Below, in pieces: positions 598 to 37,000 of a stretch of DNA of 39,704 bases. The notes beneath the pieces are model-generated. The model was not told the DNA's origin, searched no databases, and was given only the letters and a program-made list of their open reading frames with translations. The DNA lies in sequence record NC_007456.1, one strand, 5' to 3'. The position numbers and the translations under genes are program-made. Origin of the DNA: Escherichia phage K1F. Within the stretch, counting starts at the first letter, position 1. Each line of letters begins with the position of its first letter.

Positions 598-784
598 GTA
601 CCACATCGAAACAACGGTGATGACCAACACTGAAATGGTCTACCTGAAGTCCTCTGACTGAAGGGAATGCTCTTTAACAATCTGGATAAACTCTTAATGT
701 GCGCCGATAGCGACTAACTACAGGGCCTTTGAGTCTACATCTGAAGGCCCTGACTGATAGTCACTAACTTAAAGGATGGACACT

Positions 785-1030
785 ATGAAACACTTAAGCA
801 CAATCACTAATCGCAATGAAGTATTCGTGAACACTAAAGGTTATGCGTGGATTCAGCTTAAAGAGATGACAGGAGCGCGTCACCGTGTGGTAGTGCGCAA
901 GGTCTCAAGCAAGCCGTTCAGCAACTACAGCGTAGATACTGTGCGTATAAACAACGAGACCTACCTGATAGACTCACAGATAACCGTGAGTCCTACAGCG
1001 GGCGTCTCAGCTCCTTATTTCGCTAACTGA
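785..1030 (+). CDS. Hypothetical early protein (82 aa; alternative start 776)
   Basis: ORF with AAGGA 9 nt upstream of ATG 785; first ORF after putative early promoter; no recognised homolog. Confidence 0.5.
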   Translation: MKHLSTITNRNEVFVNTKGYAWIQLKEMTGARHRVVVRKVSSKPFSNYSVDTVRINNETYLIDSQITVSPTAGVSAPYFAN

Positions 1031-1113
1031 GAGTGATTAACTACAGGTCGTTAGACTGCTAGCGGCCTGACTGATAGTCACTAACACATACTTAACTTTG
1101 AGAGGATATACCT

Positions 1114-5551: not shown

Positions 5552-5574
5552 CCTAAACTATCACTATAGGATTA
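5552..5574 (+). promoter_or_regulatory. Phage RNAP promoter copy 2 (CCTAAACTATCACTATA|GGATTA)
   Basis: Consensus match; position equals T7 phi1.1 promoters downstream of gene 1. Confidence 0.75.
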
Positions 5575-5618
5575 GACTCAAGGTCATGACTCAAAGTCGT
5601 GGCCTTCATGATTAACCC
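5573..5618 (+). promoter_or_regulatory. Conserved ~45-bp element A (TAGACTCAAGGTCAT...GTGGCCTTCATGATTAACCC), RNase III-site-like
   Basis: One of three near-identical elements (5573, 12860, 36453) at positions matching T7 R1.1, R4.7, R18.5. Confidence 0.4.
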
Positions 5619-5647
5619 TGAATAAACACTACTGGAGATTTAACCGT

Positions 5648-7118: not shown

Positions 7119-7127
7119 CTAAATGTC

Positions 7128-7160
7128 AACCCAGTGGTCTTATGACTGCTGGGTTTCTTT
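7128..7160 (+). terminator. Rho-independent terminator (early terminator TE analog)
   Basis: 12-bp stem AACCCAGTGGTC/GACTGCTGGGTT with TTAT loop followed by TCTTT; directly after ligase as in T7. Confidence 0.7.
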
Positions 7161-7182
7161 GCGTCTGGGCCACCAGCTAGAC

Positions 7183-8503: not shown

Positions 8504-8521
8504 ACTATCACTGTAGGACAG
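8499..8521 (+). promoter_or_regulatory. Phage RNAP promoter copy 4, variant (CCTAAACTATCACTGTA|GGACAG; G at -3)
   Basis: Consensus match except -3; overlaps gene 2 stop; upstream of SSB. Confidence 0.6.
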
Positions 8522-10935: not shown

Positions 10936-12856
<1,921 letters not shown>

Positions 12857-12859
12857 GTC

Positions 12860-12900
12860 TAGACTCAAGGTCATTCACAGCGAGTGGCCTTTATGATTAG
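12860..12900 (+). promoter_or_regulatory. Conserved ~45-bp element B (RNase III-site-like), before DNA polymerase gene
   Basis: TAGACTCAAGGTCATTCACAGCGAGTGGCCTTTATGATTAG; same family as 5573 and 36453; T7 R4.7 position. Confidence 0.4.
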
Positions 12901-12920
12901 ACTAAAGCGGAGGATTAACC

Positions 12921-14936
12921 ATGTTTGACCTTAAGGATATTTGGGGTTCGGACATCGAGACCAACGGTCTCCTTGACACCGTGTCCCAGTTCCATTGTGG
13001 GGTCCTGATTAATGCCGAGTCGAATGAGACCCTTAAGTATGGGGTAGCGCCGATGGTCGGTATCGTCGGTGGCTTCAAAGAGTATGTACAGAAGGTGGAA
13101 GAAATTGCTGCAACGCCTACGGGTATGCTGGTCTTCCATAACGGTATCAACTATGACGTCCCGGCTATAGACAAGCTGAAGCGTTTGTACTTTGGGAAAC
13201 GATTTAACTTCCCGAAACACAAGATGATTGATACCTTGGTGCTGGGCCGCTTGATGTATCCCAACATTAAGTTCTCAGACATGGGAGCGGTGAAAGCTGG
13301 TCGTCTGCCACCTAAGATGATGGGACGCCAGTCTCTTGAGGCTTGGGGCTATCGTCTCGGTGAGATGAAAGGTGAATACAAACACGATTACGTTGCCAAA
13401 TGCAAGGCTGAAGGTATCGAATATAAGGCTGGGGACGAATGGTTGTTCCCGTCTCAGGAGATGCTGGACTATAACGTTCAAGACGTTGTGGTCACACTGG
13501 CGTTGTTCAAGAAGTTCCTGACTGACAAGTATTACTTCCAGTCTGAACAGTTCGCTTTCGAACAGATTTATGCGTTGCGTCTGGAACATGATGCTGCGTG
13601 GACCTGTGCTAAGATGGAACGTAACGGCTATCCAATGAACACAGAGATGGTCGAAGGCTTATATCGTGAACTCACCGTCAAACGTGCAGAGTTGCTGGAC
13701 AAGCTGCGTTCGACTTTCGGTAGCTGGTACGCACCAAAGGGAGGCAAGGAGTTCTTCAGGCATCCACGGACAGGTAAGGACCTTCCGAAGTATCCGAGGG
13801 TCGTGTATCCTAAGGTTGGTGGCATCTTTAAGAAGCCGAAGAACAAAGCTCAACGATTAGGTCTTGAACCTTGTGAACGCGATACGCGAGACACGATGGA
13901 GGGAGCACCATTCACACCTATCACTTACGTTGAGTTTAATCCGGGAAGCGGGGACCACTTAGCGAAAGTTCTGATGGAGCGTGGCTGGGAGCCTGTGGAC
14001 TTCACTGACACCGGGAAACCTGTAGTCGATGACGAGACGTTAGAACATGTTAAGTTACCAGACGCAGAGGCTCAGGCTTGCGTAGAGCTGGTCCGTGAGT
14101 ATCTGGTAGTCCAGAAGCGCATAGGTCAGGCTGCTGAAGGTAAGAACGCATGGTTGAAACTTGTAGGGCCAGACGGACGTATGCACGGTTCAATCAACCC
14201 ATGTGGTGCAGTAACCGGACGTGCTACCCATAGTTCACCAAACATGGCTCAGGTCCCGGCTAACGGTGCTCCGTATGGTGAGACTTGCCGTGGTGCTTTC
14301 GGTGCAGCTTGGAACAAGACGGATGGTAAGCCAGACCCTTGGATTCAAGTGGGTGTGGATGCTTCAGGTCTTGAGCTTCGTTGTCTGGGGAACCGAGCGG
14401 CTCCGTTTGATGGTGGTGCCTATGCGAAGACTGTGGTAGAAGGTGACATCCACTGGGCCAACGCAGTAAACGCTGGGTTAGCACCTAACGTCCCACGCGA
14501 TAAGTCGAACCACGACCATGATGCTTTCCGTAATAACGCTAAGACGTTCATCTATGCGTTCCTGTATGGTGCAGGGGCCGCTAAGATTGGACTGATAGTA
14601 GGCGGTGGTAAGAAGGAAGGTTCAGCTCTCATGAAGAAATTCATTGAGGGTACACCAGCCATCAAAGACCTCAGGGAAGCTGTGAGTAATACGTTAATCT
14701 CTGAGTCCAAATGGGTAGACGGTGAGAATATCGTGAAGTGGAAACGCCGCTGGCTTAAAGGCTTGGATGGTCGACGCATCCACATCCGGTCTCCACACTC
14801 AGCACTTAACGCCTTACTTCAAGGTGATGGTGCGGTAGTCTGTAAGCACTGGATTGTTGAGACAGAACGTATGCTCGAAGAGGCCGGGTATGTCCACGGC
14901 TGGGAAGGAGACTTCGCGTACATGGCATGGGTGCAT
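12921..14936 (+). CDS. 5: DNA polymerase (T7 gene 5 homolog), exon 1 (672 codons, ends ...YMAWVH)
   Basis: 3'-5' exo motif DIETNGL; ...FHNG.NYDVPA...EAWGYRLGEMKGEYK...DYNVQDVVVT...; ORF track stops at TAA 14937-14939, the first intron codon. Confidence 0.9.
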
Positions 14937-15534
14937 TAACATCATGGTGCACATTAAATCTGGTGAACTCGGTGAACTCCTAATGGGACAATACCGAGCC
15001 AAGCCATAGGGAGGATGTATGAGAGGCAAGAAGTTAATTCTTGAGGCCACTGAGACTGGCTGCATAATCCCTACGTCACATAAATTGAATCAGGATGGAT
15101 ACTTCCGAAAGAGGACTAACGGTGTCCTTGAGATGTATCATAGAACTGTATGGATTAAAGCTAATGGTCCAATACCTGAAGGTTTCGAAGTAGACCACAA
15201 GTGTCGTAATAGAGCTTGTTGCAACGTCGAACATCTACAAGTATTAGACCGTGACTCACACTTAGTCAAGACCAACCAAGAGCGATACGCTGCTAGGAAG
15301 CTAGAAGCACGAGACTACTGGGTAGAGACTGGGTGTACAGGAACGAAGTTAGCCGAAGTATTCAATGTGTCGTTCTCAGCCGCCTGTGGGTGGATTAGAG
15401 AGTGGAAGGCGTAGAGACTATCCGAAAGGAGTAGGGCCGTGGGTGAGATTCCCACGTAACCCGAAGCGCCAGACAGTCACCTCAAAGACTGATGATATAG
15501 TCCGACACTTCCAGTAATGGGAGAATACAGAAAG
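14937..15534 (+). mobile_element. Group I-type intron (598 bp) in DNA polymerase gene, carrying an HNH endonuclease ORF
   Basis: Exon 1 ends in U (14936), intron ends in G (15534); P1-like pairing of exon GUGCAU (14931-14936) with GUGCAC (14947-14952); exons join in frame to give WVH|DELQIACRT. Confidence 0.7.
15019..15414 (+). CDS. HNH homing endonuclease (131 aa) within the intron
   Basis: HNH motif EVDHKCRNRACCNVEHLQV; strong SD AGGGAGGA; free-standing ORF. Confidence 0.85.
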   Translation: MRGKKLILEATETGCIIPTSHKLNQDGYFRKRTNGVLEMYHRTVWIKANGPIPEGFEVDHKCRNRACCNVEHLQVLDRDSHLVKTNQERYAARKLEARDYWVETGCTGTKLAEVFNVSFSAACGWIREWKA

Positions 15535-35993: not shown

Positions 35994-36188
35994 ATGATTG
36001 AGTTAGACTTCAAGAATGAGGTCCTTAAAGCCTCTCCTATCGTCGGGACCGCTGCGGCTGATGGTGCCAGTCGGTTCTTCTTTGGACTCACACTGAACGA
36101 ATGGTTCTACGTTGCGGCTATCGCGTACACCGTTGTCCAAATTGGTGTGCTGGTCTACAAAACGATTAAAGGAGGTGGTAAAACATGA
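35994..36188 (+). CDS. 17.5: Holin (T7 gene 17.5 homolog), 64 aa
   Basis: ...SPIVGTAAADGASRFFFGLTLNEWFYVAAIAYTVVQIG... near-identical to T7 gp17.5 core; one TM segment; SD GGAGG. Confidence 0.85.
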   Translation: MIELDFKNEVLKASPIVGTAAADGASRFFFGLTLNEWFYVAAIAYTVVQIGVLVYKTIKGGGKT

Positions 36189-36448
36189 CGCAGATGGACT
36201 TAGAGAAGTTCCTATTGATGCTGGATACTGAACGTGCTCGACTCATGCTGCAAGACTTACGTGACGACTCTAAGCGTTCACCTCAGCTCTACAACGCCAT
36301 TGAGAAGCTGCTTGCTCGTCACAACTTTGTGTTAAGCAAGGTGTCTGTGGACGAGAAGACGCTGGCTGATATGGAGGCCCTGAACGCAGAGTACGATAAG
36401 GTGCTTTCAGCGACTGAGGATAATGACACCGGGTATGGTGTTCAATAA
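36185..36448 (+). CDS. 18: Terminase small subunit (T7 gene 18 homolog)
   Basis: ...RSPQLYNAIEKLLARH.F... matches T7 gp18 (RSPQLYNAIEKLLDRHKF); ATGA overlap with holin. Confidence 0.85.
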   Translation: MTQMDLEKFLLMLDTERARLMLQDLRDDSKRSPQLYNAIEKLLARHNFVLSKVSVDEKTLADMEALNAEYDKVLSATEDNDTGYGVQ

Positions 36449-36452
36449 GTGT

Positions 36453-36498
36453 TAGACTCAAGGTCATTACTATATGTAGTGGCCTTTATGGTTAACAC
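36453..36498 (+). promoter_or_regulatory. Conserved ~45-bp element C (RNase III-site-like), after gene 18
   Basis: TAGACTCAAGGTCATTACTATATGTAGTGGCCTTTATGGTTAACAC; T7 R18.5 position. Confidence 0.4.
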
Positions 36499-36550
36499 TA
36501 ACTAGTGGAGGCGACTCTACGTGAAAATCTGATAAACCGGGAGGGCAACT

Positions 36551-37000
36551 ATGCTCGAATTTTTAAAGAGGGCGGCTCCGTGGTTACTTGCAGCAGTGAT
36601 GTTTGCTGGTGGCTACCACACCGCTAACAATAAGTGGGAGGCTAAGGTCAATGCGGAATACACCTCGAATCTTAAGGCATCGGAAGATACAAGGCTTGCT
36701 GTCCAAGCTGAAGTCAACAAAGTGTCCAAACGGTTTCAGGACGAAATGTCCTCGTTGGAAGGCAGCACTGATAGGATTATTGCTGACCTTAAGTCTGACA
36801 ATAAGCGGCTGCTCATCCGAGTCAAACCTACGAGTGGAACCACGCAAAGTGACGGTCGATGCTTCATTGATGGTTACGCCGAACTTGACGAACGAGATGC
36901 TAAACGTCTTATCGCCATCGGAGTGAAAGGAGACAAGTGGATTAAGGCCCTTCAAGACACTGTGAGAGCCTTACAGCAAGAGAAGGAGGTGACGCATTGA
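36551..37000 (+). CDS. 18.5: Rz-like i-spanin (T7 gene 18.5 homolog)
   Basis: N-terminal TM segment ([15 protein letters not shown]), coiled-coil periplasmic domain; SD GGGAGGG. Confidence 0.8.
36651..36926 (+). CDS. 18.7: Rz1-like o-spanin lipoprotein embedded in +1 frame of 18.5 (gene 18.7 homolog)
   Basis: Signal/lipobox [16 protein letters not shown]; ...RWKAALIGL...ISGCSSES...[15 protein letters not shown] resembles T7 gp18.7; ATG 36651 within track ORF 36603..36926 (TTG start). Confidence 0.75.
   Translation: MRNTPRILRHRKIQGLLSKLKSTKCPNGFRTKCPRWKAALIGLLLTLSLTISGCSSESNLRVEPRKVTVDASLMVTPNLTNEMLNVLSPSE

Follow-up and report, generated by a model that had tools for sequence, protein, structure and literature searches.

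The closest described counterparts of the elements reported here are the RNase III processing sites of phages T7 and T3. Substrates of E. coli RNase III extend over about two helical turns, with approximately 11 bp between cut and loop as the minimum reactive helix, and internal loops restrict the enzyme to one phosphodiester, leaving a 3' hairpin that is protective against 3'-5' exonucleases (PMC1540722). A single RNase III cut results in a stabilized message (PMC6993053), and the T7 sites R0.5 and R1.1 are known to be efficient in vivo (PMC3643576). In the T3 record NC_003298, ten stem-loops are annotated as "RNase III recognition site", and these served as the basis for the T3 sites. The T7 records NC_001604 and V01146, as examined, contain no RNase III features, and the T7 sites and cuts were placed by cleavage coordinates that we take to be those of Dunn and Studier (1983); on folding, each of these positions falls in a hairpin of the expected form. 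T7 and T3 sites follow a common plan, which consists of a lower stem, ACUC, AAGGUC...GGCCUU, UAU^GAU (the cut being marked by ^) and again the lower stem.

Escherichia phage K1F belongs to the genus Kayfunavirus in the subfamily Studiervirinae (T7 group), and the window analyzed here is the whole stretch of 39,704 nucleotides of its sequence record NC_007456.1. We describe three hairpins in this window, E1, E2, and E3, which are very probably signals for host RNase III in the K1F early transcript and belong with the R0.3/R0.5/R1 family of T7 and T3. The first 2.6 kb of the window is 99.9% identical to the K1F records AM084414 and NC_007636, whose early region carries CDS features only, namely gene 0.1, gene 0.2 (785-1030, + strand; PHROG 10124, a family of unknown function), gene 0.3/ocr (1114-1623), genes 0.35, 0.36, 0.37, and 0.38 between ocr and gene 1, and gene 1 for the RNA polymerase (from 2566). 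The Ocr identity of gene 0.3 was confirmed by Pfam and PHROGs, and the small genes neighboring ocr fall into PHROGs of unknown function. Upstream of these genes lies a homolog of the T7 A3-type E. coli early promoter (568-597, + strand; TTGACA at 568-573 and TAAGCT at 592-597), and K1F 558-618 aligns locally to positions -44 to +12 of T7 A3 with a score of 47, a value that speaks to homology only. A simple scan for the sigma-70 consensus missed the early promoters including this one. Far downstream, directly after the ligase gene, a strong hairpin at 7127-7165 (CAACCCAGUGGUC...GACUGCUGGGUU) followed by UUCUUUG is probably the equivalent of the early terminator TE, which likewise is not annotated in the K1F records. 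With the A3 homolog upstream and the TE-like terminator downstream, E1 to E3 are therefore placed within the early transcript of the host polymerase. As a separate observation, gene 0.38 as annotated in AM084414 (2208-2468) contains an in-frame TAG at 2244-2246 in the NC_007456.1 sequence, where the two K1F versions are distinguished by a T that is extra at about 2243 and an A that is missing at about 2258. These two 1-nt indels, some 15 nt apart, compensate each other and suggest that the depositions differ in their sequencing.

E1 (707-769, + strand), which may be called "R0.2" as the predicted RNase III-type signal upstream of gene 0.2, pairs 708-715 with 759-766 in the lower stem and 721-730 with 743-752 in the upper stem, the two being separated by an internal loop of 716-720 and 753-758. 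E2 (1030-1086, + strand) stands directly before ocr and consists of a lower stem (1032-1038/1076-1082), an internal loop (1039-1043 and 1070-1075), and an upper stem of exactly 11 bp (1044-1054/1059-1069) that is closed by the tetraloop ACUG. E3 (1766-1822, + strand) lies before gene 0.36 and shares bases with the stop codon of gene 0.35; here the lower stem is 1767-1774/1812-1819, the internal loop 1775-1779 and 1806-1811, and the upper stem 1780-1788/1797-1805. All three are thus built on one plan, with a lower stem of 7-8 bp, an asymmetric internal loop of 5/6 nt, an upper stem of 9-11 bp, and an apical loop, and their geometry is inside the range of 12 T7/T3 sites. Fold prediction, suggested as a check in the preliminary description of this DNA, gives a hairpin in all three regions, with z-scores of -4.05 to -5.06 against dinucleotide shuffles and free energies of -24 to -26 kcal/mol (E1, -25.6 kcal/mol and z -5.1; E2, -25.3 kcal/mol and z -4.8; E3, z -4.05). 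In contexts of 300 and 800 nt every canonical pair of E1 to E3 has a pair probability of 0.83-1.00 (0.93-1.0 in E2). For E2, E3, and three other K1F sites the + strand folds much better than the - strand owing to G.U pairs, whereas E1, which lacks G.U pairs in K1F, folds equally well on the minus strand.

The preliminary description had drawn attention to a short repeat before the first two early genes. This repeat is real, as GGCCCTGACTGATAGTCACTAAC at 746-768 and GGCCTGACTGATAGTCACTAAC at 1064-1085 (both + strand) differ solely by one extra C, and they are the only 2 copies in the 39.7 kb at up to 3 mismatches, where 0.00 are expected from 100 shuffles. The copies end short of the annotated gene starts, by 16 nt at gene 0.2 (785) and by 28 nt at gene 0.3/ocr (1114). 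As a unit in its own right, however, the repeat dissolves, for each copy is only the 3' arm of a longer hairpin, the two hairpins being paralogous: the first copy runs from the 3' strand of the E1 upper stem through the 3' side of the internal loop into the 3' strand of the lower stem, and the second is the 3' arm of E2. The 5' arms of E1 and E2 are alike too (GAyTAACTACAGG), while their apical loops differ. An inverted repeat CAGGGCC...GGCCCTG, also pointed out at the outset, is present at 721-727 and 746-752 and is in fact the upper stem of E1. The motif GGCCGTCGACTGATAGGTGGCC at 1782-1803, taken as a relative of the repeat before the next ORF, does lie in a hairpin of the same family, E3, but the likeness is not one of positional homology. 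The alignment of the E3 motif to E1 and E2 is out of register because GACTGATAG occupies the apical loop and upper stem in E3, unlike the motif of this type in E1 and E2, which occupies the 3' internal loop and the lower stem.

Membership in the phage family was assessed with a covariance model that was made from 14 canonical T7/T3 RNase III sites, with the structure taken from their folds and with no K1F sequence; the promoter-embedded R3.8 and R13 types were left out. Run on K1F with filters off, the model finds six matches of 30-57 bits, all of them intergenic and on the + strand, and the next match has 12.4 bits. E2 scores 39.3 bits (E 1.3e-6), E1 33.0 bits (E 4e-5), and E3 30.3 bits (E 1.7e-4), E-values which are rough because the calibration was shortened. 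These scores of 30-39 bits are below those of the other three K1F sites (49-57 bits), all on the + strand, which are the equivalent of R1.1 at 5566-5623 (49.1 bits), between genes 1.1 and 1.15 and just after the phage promoter core at 5559-5570; the equivalent of R4.7 at 12853-12908 (49.4 bits), just upstream of the DNA polymerase ORF 12921-14939; and the equivalent of R18.5 at 36446-36503 (57.1 bits), between the ORFs 36185-36448 and 36551-37000. As a control of specificity, the 78 kb of T7 and T3 together returned the training sites and the held-out R6.5 sites (39.7 and 39.0 bits), with nothing else above 16.3 bits and hence no false positives. A scan of the whole window against Rfam at gathering thresholds gave 0 matches, a result that carries weight only if the T7 R sites are represented there by a family.

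Position and sequence tie the K1F hairpins to individual T7 sites. The segments CUGAGUGAUAGAC and GAUUAUCACUU of E3 are identical in T7 1425-1480, the R0.5 site; both E3 and R0.5 overlap the GAG-TGA stop of a short gene after ocr, and in K1F this is likewise a 0.4-like gene (0.35). Judged by sequence and synteny, E3 is the ortholog of T7 R0.5. T7 R0.3 is found before ocr, the very position that is occupied by E2, which is thus the positional equivalent of T7/T3 R0.3, although in T3 the gene after R0.3 is of the SAM hydrolase type. The upper stem CAGGUC...GGCCUG of E1 and E2 is matched by that of R1 in T7 and T3. More generally, T7 R0.3, R0.5, R1, and R1.1, the last of which is the model substrate of biochemical work, share with E1 to E3 the architecture, the strand, and the placement just 5' of the ribosome binding site (RBS).

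Relatives were gathered with the Ocr protein as anchor and thus independently of the element itself, which provided 32 loci, and 30 of these were examined. Most of these 30 loci have a hairpin built on this plan before ocr, so that the comparison with related phages proposed in the preliminary description came out in favor of the element, and its stem sequences vary by lineage. The lower stems include GUGAUUA/UAGUCAC, AGGUUA/UAACCU, and GUGGUUAC/GUAACCAC, and the upper stems CAGGUCG/CGGCCUG, CUAGGGUA/UACCCUAG, and AAGCUAUCUUGGC/GCCAGGGUAGCUU. All model matches in these loci (33/33) are on the coding strand. In a MAFFT alignment of the six K1F and twelve T7/T3 sites, 94.4% of the cells are paired, both partners have changed in 11 of the 18 pairs, and the score for covariation is 0.568, whereas controls with slid partners reach 0.055-0.106. 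Model-fitted alignments of the relatives give similar values of pairing and covariation, and such alignments lean towards the model. Upstream of ocr in two loci (L006, at about 850-905, and L014, at about 730-800) there is an E1-type hairpin with an apical insertion of about 26 nt, CCGCGAGACGGGCTTGACTTGAGCGAC. This form, which the covariance model missed, may be a branched or an extended version of the site. The ocr gene itself also varies among these phages: K1F Ocr has 169 aa compared with 110-114 aa in most relatives, an in-frame block of about 160 bp (1443-1602) is missing from loci L007-L014, and the Pfam ocr domain covers residues 7-99 only of K1F Ocr, with the extra C-terminal segment having no family assignment.

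The structure, the family membership by sequence and structure, the strand specificity, the synteny, and the covariation are the observations on which our reading of E1 to E3 as host RNase III signals is built. Processing sites of early mRNA as in T7 were one of the two candidates named in the preliminary description, and it is this one that the covariance model, the synteny, and the covariation support. By analogy with T7, the following course of events may be proposed. E. coli RNA polymerase would start at A-type promoters, one of them the A3 homolog at 568-597, and produce a polycistronic early RNA in which each hairpin, of about two helical turns, would be bound by RNase III. The internal loop would cause the enzyme to cut one strand only, on the 3' side of the loop, and from the alignment to T7 UAU^GAU the scissile bonds on the + strand are predicted at 755^756 in E1 and 1072^1073 in E2 (both ACU^GAU) and at 1808^1809 in E3 (AAA^GAU). 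The upstream message would retain a 3' hairpin and so be shielded from 3'-5' exonucleases, a stabilizing effect that is likewise expected from analogy. The downstream message would begin 29-41 nt before its start codon with the RBS free; the predicted leaders are 29 nt for E1, 41 nt before the ocr ATG for E2, and 31 nt for E3, compared with 27-34 nt in T7. As an outcome, gene 0.2, ocr together with 0.35, and the genes from 0.36 onward would each have a stable mRNA of their own.

The other candidate was that the elements are translational regulatory hairpins, which would hide or free the RBS of genes 0.2, 0.3, and 0.36 and in this way control their initiation without any need for RNase III. Each hairpin does end 16-28 nt before a start codon. 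In T7, processing of R0.3 by RNase III is reported to enhance the translation of gene 0.3, and some translational role is thus plausible. Nevertheless the Shine-Dalgarno sequences (AAGGA at 772-776, GAGAGGA at 1100-1106, and TAGGAG at 1827-1832) and the start codons all lie outside the hairpins, the stems pair with p>0.83 without them, and the same hairpin family is found at the proven processing sites of T7 and T3. In its sense of RBS occlusion this candidate is not supported, and we regard regulation that bypasses RNase III as very unlikely.

Besides their presumed part in RNA processing, the hairpins are of interest for the mosaic structure of the early region. In K1F the two repeat copies bracket an accessory cassette (769-1063, + strand) that consists of a leader, gene 0.2, and the 5' arm and loop of E2. 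When K1F 600-2600 was compared with the relatives by blastn, the segment 769-1065 was missing from seven loci (L004, L005, L006, L007, L011, L013, and L014), and in each of these the alignment block up to 768 has about 20 bp in common with the next block, which begins at 1066; the shared bases are the repeat itself. Relatives that lack gene 0.2 have one hybrid site composed of the E1 5' arm and loop, the shared 3' arm, and the ocr leader. Other arrangements are found as well: L010 carries the gene 0.2 cassette as in K1F, in L008 there is an extra cassette and ocr is preceded by three sites, a different gene of 58 aa stands between the two sites in L009 and L012, and in L004 and L013 a gene of 115 aa is inserted at the 5' arm of E3 with a site of its own. 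The early region is matched by 423 phage records, compared with 69 that contain the gene 0.2 segment. Gain or loss of the gene 0.2 cassette in relatives took place precisely at this repeat, and recombination between the sites is therefore the best explanation for E1 and E2 having 3' arms that are identical over 22 bp.

One might then take the repeat for a mere scar of recombination or duplication, left by the insertion of the gene 0.2 cassette and having no function at the RNA level, and both the indel endpoints within the repeat in seven relatives and the identity of the 3' arms next to differing 5' arms and loops are in line with such an origin. We consider this highly unlikely as a full account of the repeat, since each copy is one half of a complete hairpin with the score of a T7/T3-type site and one complete hairpin is kept even in relatives without gene 0.2; the stems covary, all matches share one strand, and a scar would not retain a matched 5' arm.

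Apart from their predicted role as RNase III signals, the R-site hairpins appear from the sequence comparisons to have a second property: with the ends of the indels falling inside the 22-bp repeat in seven relatives, the sites also mark the junctions of exchangeable early cassettes. There are about 11 distinct mosaic endpoints in K1F 600-2600, and about 5 of them are inside hairpins that cover approximately 9% of this region. Further mosaic breakpoints are located at gene boundaries, namely at both ends of gene 0.36 (start codon, 1840; end, 2007), and another within the 5' part of gene 0.38, with breakpoint windows of 1839-2009 and 2212-2294; the segment 2294-2600 is unusually conserved (96-97%, vs 87-92% in neighboring blocks). 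In the literature searched, nothing relevant was found on R sites as mosaic junctions. We tentatively put forward, as a distinct possibility, that RNase III hairpins act as conserved homology "linkers" through which small Kayfunavirus early cassettes are gained, lost, or swapped, the 22-bp repeat being the footprint of a crossover, and that the swapped cassettes are host-takeover or anti-defence genes, each with its own R site. The role as cassette junction may either have been selected or be a mere consequence of conserved sequence.

Within the repeat, the preliminary description had also singled out the small palindrome TGACT-GAT-AGTCA. Its letters are indeed there, but in context its pairing probability is 0.000, and in E1 and E2 its bases form instead the 3' internal loop ACUGAU and the 3' strand AGUCAC of the lower stem (p 0.83-1.0). 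In close relatives the palindrome is broken and the long hairpin is kept (CTGAATGATAG in L009, CTGATTGATAG in L012, and GATGGTCA in L013), and we therefore rejected it as a functional unit. This bears on the view that the palindrome or the inverted repeat is a DNA-level element such as an operator, a protein-binding site, or part of a minor promoter, a view which could appeal to the existence of the palindrome, to the minor E. coli promoters B and C that adjoin R0.5 and R1 in T3 and T7, and to a weak promoter-like match at 777-804. We find it extremely unlikely, because besides the three close relatives with their broken palindrome the distant relatives have the structure in common and not the sequence, the G.U pairs together with the coding-strand position of every one of the 33 matches point to RNA and not to duplex DNA, and, with the exception of E1, the six K1F sites fold less well on the minus strand. 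That the hairpins are intrinsic terminators or attenuators partitioning early transcription can practically be dismissed, stable GC-containing intergenic hairpins though they are, since no U-run follows any of E1 to E3, a terminator scan of 1-2600 returned 0 sites, and a proper TE-like hairpin with a U-tract is present far downstream, at about 7127-7165.

RNase III signals such as E1 to E3 are of an ordinary and well-understood kind, and they add nothing conceptually new on RNase III; they are unannotated in the K1F database records, and the K1F sites are possibly listed here for the first time. Six RNase III sites can be added to the K1F annotation, and with them the termini of the early mRNAs, both 5' and 3', can be predicted. 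Engineering of K1F for therapy against E. coli K1 is under way, and for such work these short intergenic repeats should be regarded both as processing signals and as direct repeats prone to recombination; their deletion or duplication could alter mRNA stability or lead to the loss of an insert placed between them. The finding on cassette junctions is a modest point of comparative genomics that concerns the shuffling of early genes in T7-like phages.

How K1F compares with the known systems in its entirety can be summarized from the early region outward. E1 is an extra K1F site without counterpart in T7 or T3, standing before the accessory gene 0.2, which T7 lacks. In the internal loop, the T7 consensus is ACUC/UAUGAU, and K1F has AACUA/ACUGAU and GACGA/AAAGAU instead. 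Column 22:41 of the alignment is a G-C pair in E2, where the T7/T3 sites mostly have A-U or G.U, and it is known that antideterminant base pairs in the proximal and distal boxes can block RNase III (PMC1540722). Another difference is found before gene 1, where T7 and T3 have R1 and no phage promoter and K1F has a phage promoter core instead; searching there for an R1-type site with the covariance model yielded none (best 3.3 bits), and a weak hairpin at about 2488-2535 has z -1.3. This core, TATCACTATAGG, is present in nine exact copies, all on the + strand (2481-2492, 5559, 7190, 17184, 20005, 21004, 25328, 32604, and 38859), and a further copy at 8506 has one mismatch; when up to 2 mismatches are allowed, there are 17 matches, where 2.65 are expected. 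The copy at 2481-2492 lies 74 nt upstream of gene 1 and is followed by ACTCAAGGTC, a 5' motif of R sites, with the complete site absent. A promoter core before the RNA polymerase gene 1 could constitute a positive-feedback arrangement in K1F. The region between ocr and gene 1 of K1F holds four small ORFs only, and a homolog of the T7 gp0.7 protein kinase was found nowhere in the whole window (best tblastn E = 1.0). In T7 the gp0.7 kinase takes part in host shutoff and in the stimulation of RNase III.

Outside the phages, other E. coli RNase III substrates have no sequence in common with the phage sites, and many cellular ones such as rRNA precursors are cut on both strands. Those E. coli RNase III substrates that are cut only once have about two helical turns, cleavage restricted by the loop, and a remaining 3' hairpin (PMC1540722), as is predicted for K1F. 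Among the phages, T3 has ten annotated sites and K1F six canonical ones. T3 R4.7 precedes gene 5 just as the K1F site at 12853-12908 precedes the DNA polymerase gene, and the T3 sites R0.3, R0.5, R1, R1.1, R1.3, R4.7, R6.5, and R18.5 (NC_003298) agree with the K1F sites both in family and in genomic positions.
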